Shown one piece after another: positions 2,324 through 60,371 of a DNA stretch of 64,000 bases (within the stretch, counting starts at the first letter, position 1; every line of letters begins with the position of its first letter). The notes beneath the pieces were generated by a model. The model searched no databases and was not told where the DNA came from. It saw only the letters and a program-made list of their open reading frames with translations. Origin of the DNA: a virus; the IMG/VR virus record IMGVR_UViG_3300045988_131144, positions 14,352-78,351 of that record; one strand, 5' to 3'. Position numbers and translations under genes: made by a program.

Positions 2324-2916
2324 GATACGACAGCCTTGAGGACATGCCCCCGGCGCTGCGGAAGCGCGTGGAAGAGCAGTTTGCAAGAGAACGGACGGCG
2401 GCGCAGATCAAGCAGCGATACGCACAGGGCGCTTCCGAGGTGAGCAAGAGCGCCGCTGCCGCCCTTGAAAAAGACGCGGAGGCGCTTCGCCAACTCAGCC
2501 GGGATATGGGCGCTTGGCAGGAGAAAAAGCCAAAGCGGAAGTACAACAACCAGCCGACCGAGCGACTTTTGTCAAACGGAGAGTGCATCAAGTTCGGCAG
2601 CAAGACCGAAGCGACATATTACGACGAACTGGTTCTGCGGGAGAAGCTTGGACAGGTACGAAAAATCCGCTTGCAGGTGGAATATTTGCTGAAACCGGCA
2701 TACACGGACGGCGAGACCGGGGAACGCATACCGCGAATAGCCTACTTTGCGGACTTCGTTTTCGAGGAGCTTCGTGAGGACGGGAACTGGACAACCCGTA
2801 TTGTGGACACCAAGGGCGGCGGACGAAAAGGTACCAGTACCAAGACTTTTGCCATAAAGCGGAAACTCATGGCAGACAAGGGCTACTTCATCGACACAAT
2901 CGAGCGGCGGAGGTGA
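2320..2916 (+). CDS. DUF1064-family protein (putative nuclease/resolvase-like)
   Basis: KYNNQPTE...FGSKTEATYYDELVLREKLGQVRKIRLQVEY...ADFVF pattern typical of DUF1064; ATG overlaps the upstream stop (ATGA). Confidence 0.6.
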   Translation: MRYDSLEDMPPALRKRVEEQFARERTAAQIKQRYAQGASEVSKSAAAALEKDAEALRQLSRDMGAWQEKKPKRKYNNQPTERLLSNGECIKFGSKTEATYYDELVLREKLGQVRKIRLQVEYLLKPAYTDGETGERIPRIAYFADFVFEELREDGNWTTRIVDTKGGGRKGTSTKTFAIKRKLMADKGYFIDTIERRR

Positions 2917-2920
2917 TTTT

Positions 2921-3067
2921 GTGACACCGGAAGAGTACACGGCATTTAAGCGCCGAGAGTACATGCGCAAGTATCAAGCCGAGTATTGGCGCAAAAATTC
3001 CGATAAAATCAAAACTCAACGCAGGAAACGACGGGATAAAAGGATTGGTGAAGAAGAAAAAGTTTAG
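2921..3067 (+). CDS. small basic hypothetical protein (48 aa, GTG start)
   Basis: Hand-translated MTPEEYTAFKRREYMRKYQAEYWRKNSDKIKTQRRKRRDKRIGEEEKV; GGAGGTG RBS 5 nt upstream; below ORF-track size cutoff. Confidence 0.3.
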   Translation: MTPEEYTAFKRREYMRKYQAEYWRKNSDKIKTQRRKRRDKRIGEEEKV

Positions 3068-3198
3068 ACTCTGTTGCCAAAGTTCCCTTTCCGTCATACC
3101 ATACAAGAGAACATAGAAAATTTCAGGCAGAGTGCTCAAGATAGATATAGCGTGGGCGGCTCTGCCTGTTTTTGATTTGCAGGAGAGGAGGGCGCGCC

Positions 3199-4203
3199 AT
3201 GGCGGACAATACAGTCGTGCAGCGGTGCTGTTTATGCGACAAAGAGCTGAACGATACAAACGCATGGACGCTGCCCGAACGCTTCGGAAAGCGTTACTCC
3301 CCCTACTGCATCAAGTGCCAGCCCAAGGTTTACGACCAGAGGGCAGCAACAGTAGGCTACAAGCTTGCAATGTTCCTTTGCGCGGCAGAGTTCAACATGC
3401 CGTATATGCCCGATCTCTTTAAGGCAGCGCAGAAGCTCCAGAATGACAAAACAAATCCATGGGCAGCATACACGGTGATCCTGTGTCAGAAAGGCTACCA
3501 CAAGGGCGAGAGATTCGTGCAGTTCGTCGACGGCGTGACTGATATCAAGAAAGCCTTTGACGGCAAATCAGAGACGCTGTATGTCGACGATGAAATGCTC
3601 TGCGCCGAGGATTACGTTGAGGGGCGTGTTGCGCAGGAAAAGAAATGGGGAAAAGGCCCCACGGATCACCCTTACACGCAGGAAGATTACGACAAGCTTG
3701 ACCGCATTTACTCGGCCATAGCAGATGGTCGCCCCGCAATAGGCCCCCAAACGCAGATGGCGATAGAGAAGATATCCCGTTGGACACTTGAACAGGATTA
3801 TTACTTTTACAACGGCGACCCGCAGAAAGCAAAACTGCTGGGCGACCTGATAAAAAGCGAGATGGAAAACGAACAGCTCCGCAAAAAGGACGAGCTGCCG
3901 CAAGACCTTGAAAAGCTTGACGGCATAGTGAGGGCGCTCGAAGCCAAGGGGCTGCTTGGACTGCCATTCCCGGAACTGCTGGCAAAACTCCATCCTGAGT
4001 ATCAGATGACAAAAGACGCGGCGGAGCAGATTCTCCTCGCAATTTACAACACAAGCGCGTGGAACGAGGGACGCGCAGAGGTGGCCAGCCTGCCGCCCTC
4101 GCTCCGGCTTGATGACGAGCTGGGCGAGTTCATGCAAGAGCCCGACGAGGTCGAAAAAGAGATTTACCGCAAGCTCGACCTTGTCCGCGGTGATGCGAAA
4201 TGA
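3199..4203 (+). CDS. putative terminase small subunit (by position only)
   Basis: ATG at 3199 behind a GGAGAGGAGGG RBS; N-terminal Cys4 zinc-ribbon-like motif; lies immediately upstream of and overlaps the large terminase. Confidence 0.35.
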   Translation: MADNTVVQRCCLCDKELNDTNAWTLPERFGKRYSPYCIKCQPKVYDQRAATVGYKLAMFLCAAEFNMPYMPDLFKAAQKLQNDKTNPWAAYTVILCQKGYHKGERFVQFVDGVTDIKKAFDGKSETLYVDDEMLCAEDYVEGRVAQEKKWGKGPTDHPYTQEDYDKLDRIYSAIADGRPAIGPQTQMAIEKISRWTLEQDYYFYNGDPQKAKLLGDLIKSEMENEQLRKKDELPQDLEKLDGIVRALEAKGLLGLPFPELLAKLHPEYQMTKDAAEQILLAIYNTSAWNEGRAEVASLPPSLRLDDELGEFMQEPDEVEKEIYRKLDLVRGDAK

Positions 4204-42680: not shown

Positions 42681-42948
42681 TTCGGGACGCGGTCGCTCGC
42701 CTCTGCCCCGTTCGGTGATCCTGCCGGACACGTCCGGCGGCGGGTGCAATCTGTTTTCTTCGGGGAGGTGCACCAGCTCCCCACGGCCTTACATCAGCAC
42801 CCCGGCAGGCTGACCGCCGTTTATAGCGATGGGCGCGCGTCCTCGTATCTCTCGCCGGGTTTAATCCTGTTTTCTTGCCCATGAGCGCCCGCCATATAGG
42901 CGGCTGGACTTGCACCAGCGGCGGCGGATGCCGTCGGCCTTGCGGGCT

Positions 42949-43830
42949 TCACGCGGCGATTATGGCCGCGCGTATTTGCTCGATGATCTCATATATTTTA
43001 GTACTGCCGGTGCCGCTGTTGCGCTTGTAATAGCGCACAGAGTACCGCGGCGCACCCTCGATAATGGTAATGCTGCATTGTGCAAAGCTATTGAGGATCC
43101 AGCCGCGAGTGCGCAAGGGAATTTTCACGCCGTGCGCGTCGGCTATCTCTACCAATAAAGCGCCGTCTTTTATCAAACCGCCGCGGGTAAAAATCTCCTC
43201 GGCCTTCTTTATCTCTTGCCGGTGCTGCTCTTCCTGCTCTGCTCTTTCCTTTGCTTCCTGCTCTTCACGTTCACGGCGGGCGGCTTCTTCTCTCGCTTCT
43301 CCATCGGCGCGCAGTTTTGCGGACAGCTCCGCGCACTTGCCAAGCTCCCCGAGTACAGCCGCGCCGACGAAGTCGGCGAACGTGCCGCCGTTGTCGCGGG
43401 CGTCGGTGTAATTACGAACGCGAACGCGCAGACGATCCCGGATATAATCCGCTTGCCGTGCAGGGTCTGAGCCGTACCGAAGTATTACGGGTTCTTCCTG
43501 CGCTCGCAGCGCGTCCGTGTTTTCGGTTCTCCGCCAAACTCGCGCCCGTTCCTCCTGCGTGCCGTATAGTTCCACGCAAGCCGGGAAAAAGCCCAGAACA
43601 TCGGTAAATTTATAATCTGTCATCCGCAGCGGCACTAAATAGTTGTTGATCTCGACATAAAGAAAATACCTGTCGCGCTCATTGGCGGGGTATTGGTTTT
43701 TCTCTGTACATGTCCAAAGCTTGTACGACTCCGCGCCGTTGCTGACCTCGCGCACAAAATCCGCGCGGCAGTTTTTGCCCTCGCGGTTATACATGCCGTT
43801 AATAAAAAGGGGCTTTTTTAATGTGCTCAT
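42949..43830 (-). CDS. hypothetical protein with central Glu/Arg-rich coiled coil
   Basis: 293-aa ORF. Confidence 0.5.
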   Translation of the reverse strand: MSTLKKPLFINGMYNREGKNCRADFVREVSNGAESYKLWTCTEKNQYPANERDRYFLYVEINNYLVPLRMTDYKFTDVLGFFPACVELYGTQEERARVWRRTENTDALRAQEEPVILRYGSDPARQADYIRDRLRVRVRNYTDARDNGGTFADFVGAAVLGELGKCAELSAKLRADGEAREEAARREREEQEAKERAEQEEQHRQEIKKAEEIFTRGGLIKDGALLVEIADAHGVKIPLRTRGWILNSFAQCSITIIEGAPRYSVRYYKRNSGTGSTKIYEIIEQIRAAIIAA

Positions 43831-44453: not shown

Positions 44454-44496
44454 GTTCTGACCTCCTGCGCCCGTCTGGGCTTGTCTGACTGTATGT

Positions 44497-44525
44497 ATTA
44501 TACAGTACGGTTAACAGTATTGCAA
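44497..44525 (-). promoter_or_regulatory. promoter TTGCAA-N17-TATAAT with embedded GTTAAC operator half-site
   Basis: Minus strand reads TTGCAA TACTGTTAACCGTACTG TATAAT. Confidence 0.6.
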
Positions 44526-44574
44526 TATGTTATCTTGCACAAGGTTAACCGTACTTTTTTGTGCGAATTGTATA

Positions 44575-44603
44575 TTGTTAACCGTGCGCACATTGGTTAT
44601 AAT
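44575..44603 (+). promoter_or_regulatory. promoter TTGTTA-N17-TATAAT overlapping a GTTAACCG site
   Basis: TTGTTA ACCGTGCGCACATTGGT TATAAT, 20 nt upstream of the TTG start at 44624. Confidence 0.55.
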
Positions 44604-44623
44604 AAATATGGGGAGGTGATATT

Positions 44624-45090: not shown

Positions 45091-45136
45091 ATGCTTTGTA
45101 CGGTTTACCGTGCTTATTTTTGTGCATTATTGCGGC

Positions 45137-45165
45137 TTGCAACACTGTTAACCGTACTGTATAAT
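45137..45165 (+). promoter_or_regulatory. promoter TTGCAA-N17-TATAAT, inverted copy of 44497-44525
   Basis: TTGCAA CACTGTTAACCGTACTG TATAAT. Confidence 0.6.
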
Positions 45166-45218
45166 AACACCCGTAAACAAGAATATCTGACAGATCAGAT
45201 ATTAACGGAGGTAAAAAA

Positions 45219-45377: not shown

Positions 45378-46379
45378 ATGAAATATTTCGCACAGTGCAA
45401 AAACCTTGAGGAGCTCAAGAAGGAATTTAGACGGATGGCCATGCTTCACCACCCCGACCGCGGCGGCGACGTCGAGACCATGAAAGAGATCAATAACGAG
45501 TATGACATGATGTTTCCCGTGCTCAAGGCCAAGACAGCCGCGCAGAGCACCGAAACCGCCCAGAGCACCCGCAGCGAGTTTTACACCGCGAACGGCTGGA
45601 AGGGCGAACGGTACGAAGCCGGGCGCAGCCTCAAGGAGATAGCGCAGCTTGTACGCGCCTACATCAAGGAATTTTTCCCGGACTACCGTTTCAGCGTCCG
45701 CACGGCCTACGCTTCCATGTGCCAGGAACTTCACGTTGACATGAAAGAAGCTCCCGCGGAGATCTTCAAGACCTACGAGGAAATGACAGACGATGATATT
45801 TCCGAGTGTTGGCGGAAGGCCACCCGCAACAGTGTATGGACCCTCAACAGCTGGAACAAGGCCGAGGAGAAAGCCGAATTTGAAAGAATTTGGAGCAAGT
45901 ACGGCGCATTTTATAGATGCCTGACCGACAAGACCCGCGCGACGGTGAAGGCCGTTGACGAGTATGTGAACAGCTTCAATTATGACGATTGTGATAGCAT
46001 GATAGATTATTTCGACGTCAACTTTTATTACTTCGGATGCCTGCAGAGCCCCGGCGCCGTGAAAGTCGTCCCCCGCGCTCCAAGAGCCGAGAAGCGCCCC
46101 GCCAAGGCCGAGAGCGAAGCCCCGGCACCGGCACCGGCAGACAAGGCCGAGAAGCCCGAACAGATAGCCCCGGCGAAGCTCGCAGCGCTCCGCGTTGAGT
46201 TTAATACAGAGCATGACGGGATCGAGGTTTATTTTACTTCTAAGCCCTCTCAGGAAACGCGCGACGCGCTCAAGGCCGCGGGGTATCGTTGGCATAGCGT
46301 TAAAAAATGCTGGTTCGCCAAACGCACCGAGGCGCATTTACAGGCACTCAAAAGGATTGAGGACGAAGCCGCAGCGTAA
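45378..46379 (+). CDS. J-domain (DnaJ-like) protein
   Basis: N-terminal LKKEFRRMAMLHHPDRGGD with the HPD tripeptide; C-terminal GIEVYFTSKPSQETRDALKAAGYRWHSVKKCWFA motif. Confidence 0.75.
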   Translation: MKYFAQCKNLEELKKEFRRMAMLHHPDRGGDVETMKEINNEYDMMFPVLKAKTAAQSTETAQSTRSEFYTANGWKGERYEAGRSLKEIAQLVRAYIKEFFPDYRFSVRTAYASMCQELHVDMKEAPAEIFKTYEEMTDDDISECWRKATRNSVWTLNSWNKAEEKAEFERIWSKYGAFYRCLTDKTRATVKAVDEYVNSFNYDDCDSMIDYFDVNFYYFGCLQSPGAVKVVPRAPRAEKRPAKAESEAPAPAPADKAEKPEQIAPAKLAALRVEFNTEHDGIEVYFTSKPSQETRDALKAAGYRWHSVKKCWFAKRTEAHLQALKRIEDEAAA

Positions 46380-46417
46380 ACCCCGCCCCATACATCACAA
46401 TGCAATATAAAGCCCCT

Positions 46418-46447
46418 GAGACGGTCAGAAATGGCCGTCTTTTTTAT
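46418..46447 (+). terminator. rho-independent terminator
   Basis: AGACGG tcagaaatgg CCGTCT followed by TTTTTTATT. Confidence 0.6.
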
Positions 46448-46495
46448 TGCCTTTATGCAGATGTCGACCGGGGACACGATCCGCGCCCATGCCCT

Positions 46496-47045
46496 TTAAT
46501 ATATATTATTTATATTATATATATTATATCCAAGATGTAATATATACTGTGTGTATAGGTATATATTAATAACCTATGTAATATTGGAATATACAGCCGT
46601 TCCCGCCCAGAACGCCGAGCACCAGGAGCGCCCCCGCACAAGCTCACCAAATCCCGAACCAGACGCGAGGAACGCACCCAGAAGCCCACACAAGCGCCAT
46701 ATATCGCCCCCCCTATTCTTATAGACCATACCCCGCCCCAGCCGAGCACACGACGCACGACGGAGCTTTACACAGTCGTACAGCTCCCCACACCCTTTTA
46801 TATATAAATATCTAAGATATATATTATATATACTTGAGATTTATAATATATGTGTGTATATAATGTGTATATATATCTCTATAGGTATATATAAAATAAG
46901 CGCTGCCAAGAAGAGAGCGAACCGCACACAGAAAGAATATACACACACAGCCAAAGCAAGGAGCAGAGCAATACCACAAAGAAGAGAGAGAGCACCGCCA
47001 AGAGAAGCAAGGACACAGCAACACCCAACACAACATGTTGCTGAC
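46496..47045. repeat. two tandem modules, each a TA-repeat block followed by a T-poor CA/GA-rich block
   Basis: TA blocks at 46496-46595 and 46796-46898 share ...GATNTAATATATNNTGTGTGTATA...TAGGTATATAT...; T-poor blocks at 46596-46795 and 46899-47030. Confidence 0.55.
46834..46864 (+). promoter_or_regulatory. candidate promoter TTGAGA-N17/19-TATA(T/A)(A/T) in TA block 2
   Basis: TTGAGA at 46834; TATATA at 46857 or TATAAT at 46859. Confidence 0.3.
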
Positions 47046-47265
47046 TGTCGAACCATTTTAATACAGTTCTTCAGACGGGGGAGAGTCACCAACTCGCGCT
47101 TGTTCACGATTTCGGGAACATTTGCGAGATTTTGCGAGTTTTCAAAAGCTCCGCGAAAACCGACGTCAGCCCCGCCGAAGTCGTCCAGCTCTGGTCATTT
47201 GTGTAATAATGACCAGAGATAGCTCCCCGCCCCCACTTGCAAAACCGCACGGGGGCTTGATTTTT
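46870..47265 (+). ncRNA. candidate non-coding transcript of about 400 nt (hypothetical)
   Basis: Bounded by the candidate promoter and the terminator-like hairpin at 47229-47265. Contains a T-poor tract, CAACATGTTG palindrome, TTTGCGAG x2 and an 11-bp perfect hairpin at 47189-47218. Confidence 0.2.
47229..47265 (+). terminator. terminator-like hairpin
   Basis: GCCCCC (16-nt loop) GGGGGC followed by TTGATTTTT. Confidence 0.4.
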
Positions 47266-47688
47266 CAAGGTTTTCTGGTGGCAGTCCCATTCCCTCACTC
47301 ATTCACTTCCTCCTTCCAACCATCCCAGTTTCCATCCCCTCCCCCTACTTTAAAATCGAATTTAAGATTTCAAAAGGTTCTCCGGGCGAAACTGCTATTT
47401 ATAGGCCAAATCCCCCTGTTCAATTATAATTTGGTTGAAATTCAGATAATTATTCGCTCTGGTTTTGCGTTATTCGCGCCTGTCGTGCTCTCTGGCACGC
47501 TTTACGCGTCTCGGTGGTGTAGTTTCATTCCTAAATATTAAAAGCGTTTTTAAGGCCGTTCTCGTGCGTTTTAAGGCACATGATTTTCGAGCGGTTTTCA
47601 GCCCGCTCTCGGATAATAGTCGGGTCAGGCTCAGCAGAGTTTCGCCTGCCGGTCGAGTCTGGTCGAGATAGCGACCGGCTTGGAGCAT

Positions 47689-47720
47689 AAAAAAGAGGCC
47701 ACCTCCGTAGAGATGACCTC
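47689..47720 (-). terminator. rho-independent terminator of the SPFH operon
   Basis: Minus strand reads GAGGUCAUC ucuacg GAGGUGGCCUC (with G-U pairs) followed by UUUUUUAU. Confidence 0.55.
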
Positions 47721-47759
47721 ATCAATTTTTAATCTATAACTGCCGCTGGTTACGTAGAC

Positions 47760-48614
47760 TCACTTAGACACAACAACGCTATCCGCTCCGGTTACTGTTA
47801 CCCATCCATGCTTCAAGCGTGCTTCTGCCTCCGTCATCTGGATAAGCTCCGGGGTAATGGATTCTGAAATGATCCTGTTTGCGTCTGCCTGCGCCTGTGC
47901 CTCTATGACCTCGATATCCGCAGCGGTCTGAGCCTTAACCTTGTCTGTTTCTGCCTGCGCAAGCGCCGTAGACTTCTCAAGCTCTGCTATTTCCGCATCC
48001 TGCTTTGCCTGTTCCTTTGCCTTGATCTTTTCCTGCAAGCCTGTATCGAGCTCGACATCAATAATGAGTGCGCTGGTAATCTGCATGCCATATTCATCAG
48101 ACAATTTTTCATTGAGATACTCGGTGAGAGCTTTGTTGACCTCTGACTTCTTGTCACTGTAAATGTCCATGACGGAGAACTTCGGCGTGACCTCTTTCAC
48201 ATAGGCGATAATGCTGTTCTGTATGTACGTTTCGACGAGCTGCTCACCGTCCATGCCATTGAACCGAGTGTAAATGTCTATCACACGGTCTGCCTTGAAA
48301 CTGTAATTGACCGTCAGGTTGATTTTTACCATGCCGCCGTTAGCGGGAGCGTCGATAGACCAATCCGCGTGTTCTTTGGCGTTGTAATCTGCTGGGTCGT
48401 TTGAAAACACTATCTGCTGCTGTGACACTGGGAACTGCTTCACGCGCTCTGTGAACCCTATCCAGTGCCAGCCGGGAGATAGCGTTTCGTTCTTCACACC
48501 TTTTGAGGTGTAAACAACACCAACGTTGCCTACGCTCACACGCTCAAGACATGATATACATGAGACTGCAACTATCAAAGCCAAAACTACCGCTATAATT
48601 CTTGTTTTTCTCAT
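47760..48614 (-). CDS. SPFH/Band-7 (prohibitin-like) membrane protein
   Basis: N-terminal TM IIAVVLALIVAVSCISC; SPFH-like core (VGVVYTSKG...PGWHWIGFTERVKQFP...); C-terminal Ala/Glu/Gln coiled coil. Confidence 0.7.
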   Translation of the reverse strand: MRKTRIIAVVLALIVAVSCISCLERVSVGNVGVVYTSKGVKNETLSPGWHWIGFTERVKQFPVSQQQIVFSNDPADYNAKEHADWSIDAPANGGMVKINLTVNYSFKADRVIDIYTRFNGMDGEQLVETYIQNSIIAYVKEVTPKFSVMDIYSDKKSEVNKALTEYLNEKLSDEYGMQITSALIIDVELDTGLQEKIKAKEQAKQDAEIAELEKSTALAQAETDKVKAQTAADIEVIEAQAQADANRIISESITPELIQMTEAEARLKHGWVTVTGADSVVVSK

Positions 48615-48700
48615 TTTTTCTTATTTCCTCCTAAAATGTCAAAAATTATGATAAACGCAACCGCGAATATCGCTGAACCAACAAAAAGAATTTCTCTCAC
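48611..48700 (-). CDS. 29-aa hydrophobic micropeptide coupled to the SPFH gene
   Basis: GTG start; VREILFVGSAIFAVAFIIIFDILGGNKKK; its TGA overlaps the SPFH ATG. Confidence 0.35.
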   Translation of the reverse strand: MREILFVGSAIFAVAFIIIFDILGGNKKK

Positions 48701-48713
48701 TTGGTGCCCCCTG

Positions 48714-49568
48714 TTACTCGCTATAATCTAATTCACCGGCCAACACATCAGGAAGAATGGCGGTAGCAATTCGTCTCCCGCATCTTGGACAACGGAACGG
48801 ATCAAATCCCCACAAGCGTACCATGCCCTCCGATTCCTTCTTACACGACAACGATGCGAGTGTGAACCCACAGTGTTCGCATACCGGCTTGAACTTCATG
48901 GTCGTTGTATCTGACTCTTCGCCGAGGAAGGTTCCTTCAAGCAAATCCGTCGAGTGGTCAACCTCCGCAAACCGCACCAGTTCGGCCATTGCGTCGTAGG
49001 CTTCGCAAGAAGTATCGAAGAGCATACCTCCCATCACCCCGTTTGTGTCGTCTGTGCACAAGAGGCACTCGCCCCAACCATCGTGGTGGATGCCGTAGCT
49101 CAGACCGCTCCACGGGTCTGATTCGTATGCACAGCCGAGCTCACCATGATAGTTTCCCTCGTCATCATGCACGCCGATGTGCAGTTTCTCCTTGCCGCAG
49201 AACGGACACCTATACATCTTCGGCGTCCCGTTGAGAGCGCACACGATGCCGTAACAGTACACCTCGCCCTCCTCCATGATCTTGAACTCTGCGTGTGGCA
49301 GCTCGGTCTCGTATGCCCATGAGCAGTCTCTCCCTTCGGGGCACCACACTGCTTTGATGGGCAGGGAACGTCCTTCTCCACGCTTGAGCACACCGCCCTC
49401 GAAACAGTCGCACTCTCCGTCTATTGCGCCCCTCAACTCTGCGAGGTCGTCGGATGCGCCGAACACGACGAGGAAATCCAGATTTTCTGCGAGGATTGCT
49501 TCATCTTCTGTTATCTCATTACCATACTGCCGCCCATCAAGTTTCGCGGCAAATTCTTCAACTGTCAT
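48714..49568 (-). CDS. Cys-rich protein with an internal Lar-like zinc ribbon
   Basis: 284 aa; central MYRCPFCGKEKLHIG...; C-terminal CEHCG...RCPRCG. Confidence 0.5.
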   Translation of the reverse strand: MTVEEFAAKLDGRQYGNEITEDEAILAENLDFLVVFGASDDLAELRGAIDGECDCFEGGVLKRGEGRSLPIKAVWCPEGRDCSWAYETELPHAEFKIMEEGEVYCYGIVCALNGTPKMYRCPFCGKEKLHIGVHDDEGNYHGELGCAYESDPWSGLSYGIHHDGWGECLLCTDDTNGVMGGMLFDTSCEAYDAMAELVRFAEVDHSTDLLEGTFLGEESDTTTMKFKPVCEHCGFTLASLSCKKESEGMVRLWGFDPFRCPRCGRRIATAILPDVLAGELDYSE

Positions 49569-59300: not shown

Positions 59301-59856
59301 CAGTATTGTTGCGATTATGAAAGGAATCGGAATCATGATATTAGCGATTGCGTGCTGCGTGCAGGCAATACGCTTTCTTTTCAAAATATGTGACTGGATC
59401 GATTATGTGGAGAAAAAGGCAAATCACAAGTACATTCAGTGTTCCCCGAAAATACTTGAGATAATGTTGACCACTCTTCAATACAAAATTTATCCAATAA
59501 CTACAACGTCCATAGACTGGTCTGGCTTAGAGAAAAAGGAATGTTACGGTATAGAATGGATTCGGCAAGACTCCTATGGTAGGGAAAGCTCCATTCTCAT
59601 ATATGGCCGAACTCGGCGAGAACAAGAGGAGATGAACTCCATCGTTATAAAAGCCTTACAGAAGAAGCGAACCGCGGATGTGAACAAGAAAGTTCTCGCC
59701 AACGACGCAACTATTGAAGCGGCAAATCGAATGAAAGACGACATCCAACGTATCATCAGCGAAAATCTCCGCGCCGCGCAGGAAGCCGCGCGGAAAAATC
59801 AAGAGATTATAGACCGCCTATCGGGAACAAACTCTTCCCGTGGAGGCTCACCATGA
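59290..59856 (+). CDS. membrane-anchored hypothetical protein
   Basis: GTG start behind GGAGGTGAGG; TM GIGIMILAIACCVQAIRFLF. Confidence 0.5.
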   Translation: MDIDSIVAIMKGIGIMILAIACCVQAIRFLFKICDWIDYVEKKANHKYIQCSPKILEIMLTTLQYKIYPITTTSIDWSGLEKKECYGIEWIRQDSYGRESSILIYGRTRREQEEMNSIVIKALQKKRTADVNKKVLANDATIEAANRMKDDIQRIISENLRAAQEAARKNQEIIDRLSGTNSSRGGSP

Positions 59857-60371
59857 ACAGCCGGGACGATGCCGAGCGGCGTTACCTTGAGAATGAAAAA
59901 CTCATTTATGGCGCTTTGCATAAATATTTCCCGGCGCTCGCGTCTGATGAGGACATTCAGCAGATCGCGGGGATCGGTCTCTGGAAAGCCTGTTTGAACT
60001 ACGATGCGGATAAGTCGTGCTTCTCAACTGCCGCGTATAAATTCATCAAGACCGAAGTGCTGCAGGAACTACGAAAAAGGCGACGCCGAGGCAAAATCAC
60101 AACAATACCTTTCGCTGCATTGGTGTGCGATTTGACCGCTGAGGGTAAAGAAGAGCTGGATATCCTTGCCATTAGTCCGAGTCTTGATGACATCGACTGG
60201 TGCGACGCAGAAACGTTTTGGGCATCATTGACCGAACGCCAGCAGTTCATCGTCAAGGCGCGTATATCTGGGCTGATTGATGAGGAAATCGCCGCCGCAC
60301 TGGGTTTGTCTCGCACATTGATTATCCATGAAAAGAAAAACATTCGGCGAATAGCCGAGGAAACATTATGA
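59853..60371 (+). CDS. sigma-70-family (ECF-sized) RNA polymerase sigma factor
   Basis: Region 2-like IAGIGLWKACLNYD...FSTAAYKFIKTEV; region 4 HTH LTERQQFIVKARISGLIDEEIAAALGLSRTLIIHEKKNIRRI. Confidence 0.7.
   Translation: MNSRDDAERRYLENEKLIYGALHKYFPALASDEDIQQIAGIGLWKACLNYDADKSCFSTAAYKFIKTEVLQELRKRRRRGKITTIPFAALVCDLTAEGKEELDILAISPSLDDIDWCDAETFWASLTERQQFIVKARISGLIDEEIAAALGLSRTLIIHEKKNIRRIAEETL

Follow-up and report, generated by a model that had tools for sequence, protein, structure and literature searches.

ColE1 RNA II and similar R-loop-primed origins consist of a promoter followed by a non-coding transcript that forms a persistent RNA:DNA hybrid. The sponge RNAs CsrB/RsmZ and CrcZ and the C-rich small RNAs RsaE/RoxS contain long single-stranded, motif-dense stretches of low complexity whose composition stays while the exact sequence drifts. 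Most genomes of tailed phages are read gene by gene, and their long non-coding stretches are seldom examined. The origins of Ceduovirus (lactococcal c2-type phages) are free of open reading frames (ORFs) and ribosome-binding sites (RBSs), are flanked by two tandem promoters and are transcribed into a non-coding RNA, PE1-T, that is implicated in initiation (PMC7150918). They occur as three types that share >90% identity within a type and are unrelated between types (PMC7150918). The oriR of phage SPP1 is a second origin and proposed fork barrier that is bracketed by transcription signals and has moron genes as its neighbours, with the replication genes at a great distance (PMC6316719). Here we describe a 1.3-kb ORF-free module that stays intact in a common human-gut phage while the surrounding genes swap, and that breaks many public assemblies of this phage.

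Extent and layout of the module

The module is carried by a ~78-kb temperate Clostridia phage species of the human gut. In the 64,000-nucleotide stretch of DNA that was analysed (the window), it occupies positions 46397-47739 as a single discrete unit of ~1.3 kb that runs from terminator to terminator (Table 1). The original prediction had noticed the terminators on both sides, and almost all of the other sequence features it listed were recovered where it had placed them. On the plus strand, the left terminator is followed by a first TA element (TA1), a U-poor body, a hairpin with a U run, a second TA element (TA2) and a second U-poor body; a structured domain, a GC hairpin with a U tract, a right domain and the right terminator complete the order. 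The right terminator also has a U-rich tail on the plus strand and may thus be bidirectional. Going by its sequence, we read the module as a transcriptionally insulated non-coding locus.

In the relative L002, ~870 bp are inserted after the J-domain gene and homology to the module restarts at 46397. The right boundary is invariant in all relatives, with differing sequence to its right; the SPFH cassette that lies there is found in some genomes only. The motif CCCCGCCCC occurs exactly three times in the window, always inside the region, against 0.43 copies expected. A CAACATGTTG palindrome is present as well; it is limited to the window and one relative and is thus not a conserved feature.

Table 1 Features of the module, in window coordinates
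Feature	Position	Strand	Details and basis
Left boundary, including the J-domain operon intrinsic terminator	46397-46447	+	Stem 46418-46441, T run to 46447; terminator scan
TA element 1	46486-46595	+	84% A+T; 6 C and 10 G over 46496-46595; homologous to TA2
T-poor block 1	46596-46790	+	C 43%, A 27%, G 20%, T 10%; composition kept in all relatives
TA element 2	46787-46898	+	86-87% A+T; end coincides with start of T-poor block 2
T-poor block 2	46899-47035	+	A 47%, C 28%, G 23%, T 3%; 70% purine; (AG)n and (CA)n runs
Hairpin-rich conserved domain	47036-47284	.	Folding z-scores, invariant runs
Inverted repeats in hairpin domain	47041-47076 and 47093-47128		
10-bp direct repeat TTTGCGAGAT, two copies	47121-47140		
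Terminator-like hairpin in hairpin domain	47178-47166	-	Terminator scan
Terminator-like GCCCCC...GGGGGC stem, then TTGATTTTTC	47229-47256	+	
C/T tract	47285-47350	+	C 52%, T 32%, A 15%, G 2%; hypervariable, 61-97% identity
AT-rich conserved stretch, hypervariable 35 nt, invariant palindrome AATTATAATT at 47422-47431	47351-47439	.	Alignment
Right domain	47440-47688	+	Long-range helix: 47455-47461/47681-47687 and 47478-47502/47655-47679
Right boundary, including the minus-strand operon intrinsic terminator	47689-47739	-	Stem 47720-47695, T run 47694-47689; terminator scan

TA elements, T-poor blocks and possible transcription units

The two TA blocks stand out as first described: 46489-46558 and 46790-46899 are the sole places in the 64 kb where A+T reaches at least 85% per 60 nt. 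They are homologous over ~90 nt each, with a local alignment score of 56 for 46486-46567 against 46787-46875, compared with 17.6 ± 2.8 (maximum 31) for shuffled sequences. TA1 opens with CCCATGCCCTTTAATATATA, also contains TGTGTGTATAGGTATATAT and is 80-100% identical among relatives. TA2, which contains TATAGGTATATAT and YTAAGAT units spaced 21 bp apart, is the best-conserved part of the module (92-99% identity in all pairs); in two relatives 6 nt are inserted between it and the start of block 2. Six promoter-like sigma-70 hexamer pairs occur in 46000-48000, against 2.3 expected, and five of them lie in the TA elements. TA-rich DNA can yield -10-like hexamers through its composition alone, and no conserved -35 element with proper spacing was found in the module. 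The similarity of the TA elements to other promoter regions of the phage is of the low-complexity kind only, as are the chance matches returned by a scan of IMG/VR for the TA-core pattern.

Each TA element is followed by a T-poor block, and the two blocks are not homologous to each other. The scarcity of T reported earlier is real, with 4 T in the 137 nt of block 2 and T-free runs of 63 nt (46973-47035), 47 nt (46653-46699), 42 nt (46602-46643) and 37 nt (46730-46766). As plus-strand RNA, block 2 is essentially unstructured (-10.1 kcal/mol over 137 nt); its second half is conserved at 95-96%, and its indels measure 2, 4 and 7 nt. Block 1 comprises three allelic types that are 92-99% identical within a type and 58-75% identical between types. 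It has conserved T-containing islands near 46697-46727 and indel lengths that are not multiples of three, and it closes with a hairpin (46762-46787) followed by CCC...TTTT. This hairpin has a folding z of -2.95 on the plus strand and shows one compensatory change, from A-T to G-C, between types. Neither the T-free linker within the J-domain gene nor the organizer gene's A/G-rich tract shows homology to the T-poor blocks, and pairing of these blocks with the C/T tract is no better than that of shuffles.

A deficit of C/T polymorphisms in block 1 (p = 0.0025) was considered as a sign of selection against T. The deficit vanishes within one allele type, so we rejected it as an artefact of aligning unrelated alleles. 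Among close relatives, C/T polymorphisms occur inside block 1 at a normal rate, and avoidance of T is thus not visibly selected over short time.

We tentatively read the module as two or three tandem plus-strand non-coding transcription units, which we regard as possible rather than probable. The duplicated TA elements would act as AT-rich promoter regions. Unit 1 would extend from TA1 through T-poor block 1 to the hairpin at 46762-46787 and its U run. Unit 2 would comprise TA2, T-poor block 2 and the hairpin domain, up to the GC stem and U tract (47229-47266). Unit 3, if real, would be the right domain, closed by its long-range helix and ending at the terminator (47695-47720). The U-poor stretches would yield long unstructured RNA unable to hold start codons, stop codons or intrinsic terminators, and this RNA would make RNA:DNA hybrids without the weak rU:dA pair. 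By analogy with the origin of the c2-type lactococcal phages, we propose that the transcripts may act on the DNA in cis, for instance through an R-loop that primes or pauses replication, and not as diffusible regulators.

Hairpin domain, right domain and replication

The hairpin domain folds about equally well on either strand. Folding z-scores are -5.6 (plus) and -4.7 (minus) for 47150-47275, and -2.5 (plus) and -1.5 (minus) for 47030-47160. Invariant runs of 25-36 nt span the domain across 21 sequences, in which 0 of 41 pairs show compensatory changes. The 11-bp hairpin at 47189-47218 is perfect in the window, as had been claimed, and has 1-2 non-Watson-Crick pairs in most relatives; the direct repeat TTTGCGAG, at 47121 and 47131, is likewise present and is invariant in 21 relatives. 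Both the lack of covariation in this domain and the like folding of its two strands speak against the transcription units proposed above.

In the right part of the module (47351-47690), 161 of 340 columns (47%) are variable, yet there is just one real indel. The variable sites lack 3-periodicity (51/60/50), and each of the six frames is interrupted by stops. AATTATAATT reads TATAAT on either strand, and no conserved -35 element was found to accompany it. The long-range helix of the right domain is paired in 96% of cells as plus-strand RNA and in 72% as minus-strand RNA (26 sequences), and its 96% compares with 33-45% when the partners are slid by 1-3 columns; variation is accommodated as G-U pairs on the plus strand. 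Single-sequence folding of the right domain is weak, with z -1.05 on the plus strand (insignificant) and -2.3 on the minus strand. RNAalifold predicts an equally good structure on the minus strand, and the hairpin at 47588-47609 is retained in the minus sense only.

Invariance without covariation is the pattern expected of protein sites, and the module could be a cis-acting, protein-bound DNA site: an accessory origin, a fork-arrest or recombination site like SPP1 oriR, or a different kind of anchoring site. The TA elements, where A+T content is the highest in the window, would then be easily melted or cruciform-forming, and the strand-asymmetric blocks would be non-B DNA. The invariant 10-bp repeats (two copies of TTTGCGAGAT), the YTAAGAT repeats 21 bp apart and the palindromes CTTGATTTTTCAAG and AATTATAATT would serve as binding sites. 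Three of the top five G4Hunter windows in the 64 kb fall within the module, its hairpins fold on both strands, the terminators shield it from outside transcription, and the phage has genes for a DnaB-type helicase and a replisome organizer. Block boundaries coincide with shifts in which relatives cluster together, consistent with frequent recombination, although mosaicism is just as pronounced across the entire accessory region (39-54 kb). Both TA elements are AT-rich enough for the unwinding element of an iteron-type origin, but the conservation of TA2 is more than a mere melting element would need.

A replication origin had been among the functions first suggested for the locus. The module is probably not the primary origin, because an iteron array and an A/G-rich AT tract sit instead inside the Phage_rep_org_N (replisome-organizer) gene and have no repeats in common with it. 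The GTCAC iterons of this candidate origin are absent from the module, k-mers common to both are at chance level, and no initiator or partition gene adjoins the module. These absences weigh against a protein-bound cis-acting site as well, and we consider such a site rather unlikely.

Distribution and conservation

Every contig of the phage species that spans the locus carries the module at full length. Conserved blocks do exist, namely TA2 and the invariant runs of the hairpin domain, and the module is kept while the genes on both sides vary. The block architecture and the composition of each block, on whose conservation the original prediction depended, are maintained across divergent alleles.

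Among the collections searched, we found the architecture only in this one phage species. BLASTN of the module against INPHARED phages and PLSDB plasmids returned nothing, and a scan of ~2 Mb of fetched loci for a TA block beside a GC-rich block poor in one letter recovered homologues only. In other phages (L013 and L014), what comes after a related J-domain gene is a set of ordinary small genes that do not resemble the module. None of the GTDB representative genomes gave an exact match in a search for a host prophage, and the phage terminase points towards an uncultured Eubacteriales MAG.

A known class of RNA, for which a search covering ROOL and GOLLD had been suggested, is not what the searches indicate. 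Rfam, whose published contents include both, gave no match at the gathering score or at E <= 10. The only hits of Rfam 15 in 46000-48000 at E <= 10 were at chance level and scored 11-24 bits, where the gathering scores are 36-90. Neither a tRNA nor a tmRNA is present. The sole Rfam match in the window is a twister-sister ribozyme at 42872-42950.

The module could also be a largely functionless spacer between convergent terminators, made of simple DNA by replication slippage, shuffled by recombination and carried along because it lies at a junction where accessory cassettes exchange. Cryptically simple DNA is present in the form of (TA)n, (CA)n, (AG)n and C runs. The restriction to one species and the ordinary small genes that follow the J-domain gene in L013 and L014 fit a spacer, as do the low-complexity, indel-rich and hypervariable blocks, the neutral appearance of within-type substitutions and the weakness of the RNA-structure evidence. 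Composition alone, moreover, explains why the C/T tract stays G-free. Against a spacer, the full-length module persists in every genome spanning it while neighbouring cassettes come and go. TA2 and the 25-36-nt runs are invariant in 19-21 sequences that differ elsewhere at 26-55% of columns, the variable right domain is nearly free of indels, and all three strongly diverged block 1 alleles are T-poor. We therefore hold a spacer to be unlikely.

Base composition and RNA:DNA hybrids

The polypyrimidine tract of the original prediction stays G-free in all alleles despite its hypervariable sequence (1 G in 66 nt in the window). This C/T tract has the top G4Hunter score of the window (2.0), with the minus strand as the G-rich sense, and its minus-sense RNA favours hybrid formation more than any other 100 nt of the window (-25.6 kcal). 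According to nearest-neighbour thermodynamics, the C/T tract and block 1, both read in the minus sense, are the strongest hybrid-forming stretches, which counts against plus-strand transcription units; the plus-sense hybrid value of block 2 has a z of only -1.6. Read as plus-strand RNA, the C/T tract and the T-poor blocks have almost no structure.

The module may represent an undescribed phage element whose function resides in a restricted alphabet and not in a specific sequence, serving as a programmed R-loop site; we regard this as distinctly improbable. Transcripts would start from the duplicated TA-only elements, which would serve as promoters or melting sites, and would lack U or, if read in the opposite sense, consist of G and A only. 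Unusually persistent RNA:DNA hybrids would flank the invariant hairpin cluster, and the R-loop would start, pause or redirect replication and recombination independently of the organizer-type origin.

Coding potential

The region had been judged non-coding from the start, its long ORFs merely reflecting missing stop-codon letters, and both statements are borne out: there is no conserved frame, no RBS and no family match. Were the module a decayed or phase-variable plus-strand protein gene, intact in few genomes, its TA blocks would once have coded for membrane segments rich in Ile, Tyr and Leu, and its T-poor blocks for linkers that are basic and disordered. A single open frame, of 309 and 321 codons, does cover the entire module in two relatives and is called as a gene. 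The best plus-strand frame has 4-7 stops in all relatives, against up to 13-20 in the stop-richest frame, the frame changes are located at simple repeats, and T-free coding linkers exist at 46080-46164 in the adjacent J-domain gene. Yet a comparison of the two intact copies gives a pN/pS of 0.80, where the neighbouring J-domain gene has 0.14 at equal pS, and frames are broken differently in 11 of 13 relatives, which need 1-4 switches (0 in the other 2). A collection of 5.8 billion proteins holds only 18 clusters of module-ORF fragments, 2-3 of them full length. No Pfam or PHROG family matches the module ORFs, and no fetched sequence has translated similarity to them. Strong RBSs precede the phage genes whose starts were read (44.6-45.4 kb), whereas no Shine-Dalgarno sequence lies before the candidate starts checked (46489, 47056 and 47688). 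A protein gene is, on this evidence, very improbable.

Three individual ORFs were considered and rejected. The whole-module ORF of 309-321 aa fails on its pN/pS and on the rarity of intact copies. A 72-aa ORF on the minus strand (47470-47688) is spurious despite 61 database clusters, as its start codon directly follows the terminator; 9 of 15 relatives have lost the start or carry an interrupted frame. The third, a hydrophobic minus-strand ORF from ATG 47056 (57-78 aa), varies in frame among relatives; this ATG has no Shine-Dalgarno sequence and is missing in 3 of 19 copies. Type I toxin-antitoxin pairs, which are convergent overlapping RNAs, include a small, conserved hydrophobic toxin ORF with start codon and RBS, and no such ORF was found in the module.

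Contig ends, packaging and site-specific recombination

Many public contigs end in the TA elements. Five IMG/VR contigs end inside or beside TA1, and several start or end in TA2. Within the module these ends are scattered over ~500 bp (46455, 46505, 46533, 46632, 46812-46870 and others). Such scatter is what poor coverage or repeated k-mers would produce where GC is 14-20%, and the ends look like assembly failure. A packaging site had also been suggested at first. Contig starts cluster at 2741-3362 of the window, by the terminase genes (3.2-6.0 kb), and the module is for this reason probably not the packaging site.

In one assembly, precisely the segment between TA1 and TA2 is missing, the phage encodes two tyrosine recombinases, and an IMG/VR pattern scan found the 10-bp unit TTTGCGAGAT arrayed beside terS at contig ends in an unrelated phage group. 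The likeness to these cos-side arrays, however, reaches only ~15 nt upstream and 27 nt downstream of the repeat, and block 1 has the same orientation in 13 of 13 full-length copies, unlike an inverton. With the contig ends distributed as described, it is scarcely credible that the module is a cos/pac site or that a site-specific recombinase, acting on the TA elements, inverts or excises a segment of it.

Implications

If the module is a transcript-driven site of replication or recombination, the c2-type mechanism would extend to temperate gut phages of Clostridia that also have a classical origin. The composition signature could then be used to locate such sites elsewhere, and the recurrent assembly gap would be explained. 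Should the module instead be a spacer, it would still be a useful warning on gene calling: its stop-poor composition produces long ORFs (72, 64 and 185-321 aa) that gene callers annotate as proteins and that populate databases.

Comparison with described systems

The C/T tract resembles CsrB/RsmZ-type RNAs in being moderately enriched in TCC (GGA on the minus strand), with 7.7 observed against 4.8 expected and no enrichment in three alleles. Unlike CsrB/RsmZ, CrcZ and RsaE/RoxS, the module has no Rfam match and no evident presentation of motifs in hairpin loops. As in ColE1 RNA II, the minus-sense C/T tract gives G clusters and a hairpin cluster adjoins it. The module differs in having no sequence or structural homology to RNA II, and the hybrid advantage of its plus-sense T-poor RNA is modest.

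SPP1 oriR has the same initiator-binding repeats as oriL, whereas the module has none of those of the candidate primary origin. The module also exceeds oriR by far in size, and nothing in the description of oriR corresponds to the module's T-poor and G-free blocks (PMC6316719). Like oriR, it is non-coding, bracketed by transcription signals, located by moron genes and remote from the replication genes, and it has an AT-rich unwinding region as well as direct repeats. SPP1 and the gut phage each have genes for a DnaB-type helicase and an organizer-type initiator.

By analogy, the transcript-primed c2-type origin may be the closest functional counterpart of the module. The c2 origin separates early and late gene blocks that diverge from each other, and the early genes are driven by its second promoter; the module lies between convergent terminators, has no genes downstream and shares no sequence similarity with it, and its phage also has an organizer/helicase-type origin. 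The two loci are nevertheless alike in being free of ORFs and RBSs. The c2 origin is delimited by two tandem promoters and the module by two tandem AT-rich elements, TA1 and TA2, that may be promoters; in each locus, the segment between the two is the main variable part, occurring in three discrete types.

Genomic setting of the module

The phage is temperate and siphovirus-like, has a genome of ~78 kb and derives from human gut metagenomes; contig ERR636411 k127_136808 matches the window's own sequence. An uncultured Eubacteriales MAG carries a terminase homologue with 92% identity. Structural genes and the terminase occupy 1-30 kb of the window, a module of SSB, replisome organizer (Phage_rep_org_N) and DnaB helicase lies just upstream of its start, and the lysogeny module lies past its right end. 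The phage also encodes a sigma factor (Sigma70_r2, 59853-60371) adjoining a radical-SAM protein gene and, there and in neighboring genes (fetched locus L080, 7889-9556), at least five DNA methyltransferases, a dCMP deaminase, a dUTPase and a dGTP diphosphohydrolase-like protein. With its own sigma factor and these methyltransferase and nucleotide genes, the phage may have unusual promoter specificity and DNA chemistry.

The module is housed in an accessory region (39-54 kb) that is mosaic, with inter-genome identity of 77-100% vs 95-99% at the terminase region. Comparison with relatives delimits the conserved unit as 46397-47739, terminator to terminator. In one relative, an insertion of ~870 bp separates the left terminator from the J-domain gene. 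On the right, an SPFH/Band-7 cassette with its own promoter region (47740-48700) occurs in only some genomes of the species (the window and relatives L001, L072, L075, L076, L078 and L255); in those lacking it, the right terminator directly follows a 284-aa zinc-ribbon gene (48714-49568).

The region to the left has features of its own. A full-length twister-sister ribozyme (RF02681; 42872-42950, minus strand; 76.5 bits vs a gathering score of 34, E 8e-16) sits between two minus-strand genes, ~3.5 kb from the module, and two related contigs stop at most ~100 bp from it (about 42962 and 43043). Three near-consensus promoters (44496-44542, minus; 44569-44604 and 45120-45166, plus) combine TTGCAA or TTGTTA with a 17-nt spacer and TATAAT. 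Two of them lie 577 nt apart as an inverted repeat of 47 nt with 83% complementarity. The motif GTTAACCGT(A/G)C lies in or beside the spacer of each promoter, with a fourth copy between them (44543-44554). This looks like an operator shared by the divergent leftward genes and the small operon whose last gene is the J-domain gene.

Architecture and conservation

Re-measurement of blocks, repeats and homology bore out the original prediction's description of the stretch, as the TA, T-poor and C/T blocks and the CCCCGCCCC copies were all confirmed in the sequence; the exception is the palindrome CAACATGTTG, which is private to two genomes. Within the 64-kb window, AT content reaches 85% or more over 60 nt only in TA elements 1 and 2 (TA1, TA2). 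The two are homologous to each other, being copies of one element (alignment score 56 vs 17.6 +/- 2.8 for shuffles); alignment found no homology between T-poor blocks 1 and 2. All three copies of CCCCGCCCC fall in the module region, vs 0.43 expected for the entire window. Three of the top five G4Hunter windows in the 64 kb also lie in the module, each with the minus strand as the G-rich strand.

Features of the module and its flanking terminators
Feature	Position	Strand	Remarks
Left intrinsic terminator	stem 46418-46441	+	closes operon whose last gene is J-domain/LPD29
TA1	46486-46595		
Block 1	46596-46790		C- and A-rich
TA2	46787-46898		
Block 2	46899-47035		70% purine; T at 4/137 nt
Hairpin-rich domain	47036-47284		
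C/T tract	47285-47350		G at 1/66 nt
Short AT-rich and hypervariable stretch	after C/T tract		ends in invariant palindrome AATTATAATT
Right domain	47440-47688		250 nt
Right terminator	stem 47720-47695	-	belongs to minus-strand operon

The module is present in all contigs of the species that span the locus and, as far as we could search, is specific to this one phage species. TA2 is 92-99% identical in every pair, and among 19-21 distinct sequences, runs of 25-36 nt are invariant in the second half of block 2 and in the hairpin domain. Three allele types are distinguished in block 1 (92-99% identity within, 58-75% between types), and C/T tract identity ranges from 61 to 97%. Block composition is retained by every allele despite this divergence. 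The right domain has 47% variable columns with essentially no indels, which points to a length constraint.

RNA or DNA element

We tentatively rank first, with low confidence, a putative non-coding RNA locus on the plus strand, which may act in cis on replication. Along the plus strand, the left terminator is followed by TA1, a U-poor body, a hairpin (46762-46787; z -2.95, one compensatory change from A-T to G-C) and a U run, then by TA2, a second U-poor body and a structured domain, then by a GC hairpin and UUGAUUUUUC (47229-47266), and finally by the right domain and a terminator. As plus-sense RNA, the T-poor and C/T blocks would be nearly without structure (-10.1 kcal/mol for 137 nt, -0.5 for 73 nt), which favors a plus-strand RNA. 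So does a long-range helix of 26 pairs in the right domain (47455-47502 with 47655-47687), which is 96% paired vs 33-45% for slid partners. Across 26 sequences, 96% of its cells pair as plus RNA vs 72% as minus RNA, and variation is accommodated chiefly as G-U in the plus sense.

Other results argue against a structured RNA. In the hairpin domain, none of 41 pairs has a compensatory change and the two strands fold alike (z -5.6 and -4.7); the plus-strand z of the right domain is only -1.05, and its minus-strand consensus structure is just as good. Shuffle controls for covariation there give 1-19 of 500, which is suggestive only. The module was also searched for known RNA classes, and Rfam returned no match. 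Nearest-neighbor comparison of RNA:DNA hybrid and DNA duplex gives a mixed picture: with minus-sense RNA, no other 100 nt of the window favor a hybrid as strongly as the C/T tract (-25.6 kcal vs a mean of -2.4, sd 6.0), and third place goes to the end of block 1; the plus-sense value of block 2 is only -13.0 (z -1.6). A protein-bound DNA site, with which the strand-symmetric folding would agree, is a possible reading that we rank second.

Ranked third, close behind, is a largely functionless low-complexity spacer. C/T polymorphisms inside one allele type are as frequent as elsewhere, so selection for T avoidance is not visible over short times; an apparent cross-type deficit proved to be an alignment effect that is gone within one type. 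The presence of the module at every spanned locus and its invariant runs sit less easily with a spacer.

The module is non-coding

The module is non-coding, real and conserved. Its ORFs have no matches in Pfam or PHROGs, indels among relatives measure 1, 2, 4, 6, 7, 10, 11 and 16 nt, and variable sites of the right domain are spread over the phases (51/60/50), every frame having stops. In two relatives the entire module, both TA elements included, reads as one open frame on the plus strand (309 and 321 codons), annotated as a gene (L254 3275-4204; L255 3260-4225) and encountered through the search with a 72-aa ORF. This frame requires 1-4 frame switches in 11 of 13 copies, has just 18 clusters, chiefly fragments, in a collection of 5.8 billion proteins, and shows a pN/pS of 0.80 between the two intact copies vs 0.14 for the J-domain gene at the same pS of 0.21. 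The 72-aa minus-strand ORF (47470-47688) has 61 clusters; its start abuts the terminator T run without a ribosome-binding site, and the start is missing or the frame interrupted in 9 of 15 relatives. Neither strand of T-free DNA can contain a stop codon, and the same is true of pure (TA)n, so the long ORFs are a by-product of composition, as originally proposed. Public annotations inside the module (64 aa, 47104-47298, minus strand; the 72-aa ORF; 185-321 aa, 18 clusters) look like database artefacts of the same origin. A decayed gene is unlikely. In more distant phages, the genes that follow the J-domain homologue have no translated similarity to the module.

Real coding linkers of this phage also contain one-letter-free stretches. 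An Ala/Pro/Glu/Lys linker within the J-domain gene is encoded by the window's longest stretch without T (85 nt, 46080-46164), and an A-free run of 55 nt (43212-43266) lies within a minus-strand gene (42949-43830).

Replication origin and packaging site

The module is probably not the primary origin. The Phage_rep_org_N gene contains a classical GTCAC-type repeat array (GACGTCACGTGACAGTCACGTGACAGTCAC...) and, after it, an AT tract of 75 nt that is A/G-rich and T-poor (fetched locus L120, 6470-6610; ~2.3 kb upstream of the window start); this is likely the primary origin. It has no repeats in common with the module above chance.

A packaging or recombinase site is unlikely, since related contigs start beside the terminase genes, module contig ends are scattered and all copies share one orientation, which also rejects an inverton. 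Four related IMG/VR contigs start or end within ~600 bp (2741-3362), just upstream of or into a 334-343-aa gene preceding the large terminase and next to an HNH endonuclease gene (1121-2323), which suggests the packaging start (pac or cos). Ends within the module (46455, 46505, 46533, 46632, 46812-46870 and others) are scattered through TA1 and TA2, as would be expected where DNA of 14-20% GC is poorly covered and shares k-mers. At 46505 two contigs break off, one of them continuing into Illumina adapter, and both resume at 46870; they are probably two assemblies of one sample. Untrimmed adapters (Illumina GATCGGAAGAGCGGTTCAGCA, Nextera CTGTCTCTTATACACATCT) form the ends of public IMG/VR contigs (L006, last 21 nt; L104, 13904-13933; L117, 10472-10514).

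An unrelated AT-rich phage group carries arrays of 4-6 tandem 10-bp units GATTT[T/A/G]GCGA just upstream of the small terminase gene (L104 13808-13865; also L088, L091, L099-L101, L105, L112, L113 and L117), 50-120 nt from contig ends that finish GC-rich. They probably serve as terminase-binding repeats of a cos site, and the two-copy repeat at 47121-47140 of the window has the same unit.

Comparison with known systems

The SPP1 oriR, which is insulated by transcription signals and lies beside morons, distant from replication genes (PMC6316719), offers a parallel for the module as a second site. Its repeats are common to oriL, whereas those of the module are not common to its phage's candidate origin. 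The closest functional parallel that we found would be the origin of lactococcal c2-type phages, which has no ORFs or ribosome-binding sites, is flanked by two tandem promoters and produces a non-coding transcript, PE1-T, implicated in initiation (PMC7150918). Three types of it exist; members of one type are >90% identical, those of different types are unrelated, and it is mainly the inter-promoter sequence that varies (PMC7150918). Although the c2-type origin has genes downstream and another genomic position, its order of promoter, variable segment and promoter is mirrored by TA1, block 1 with its three types, and TA2.
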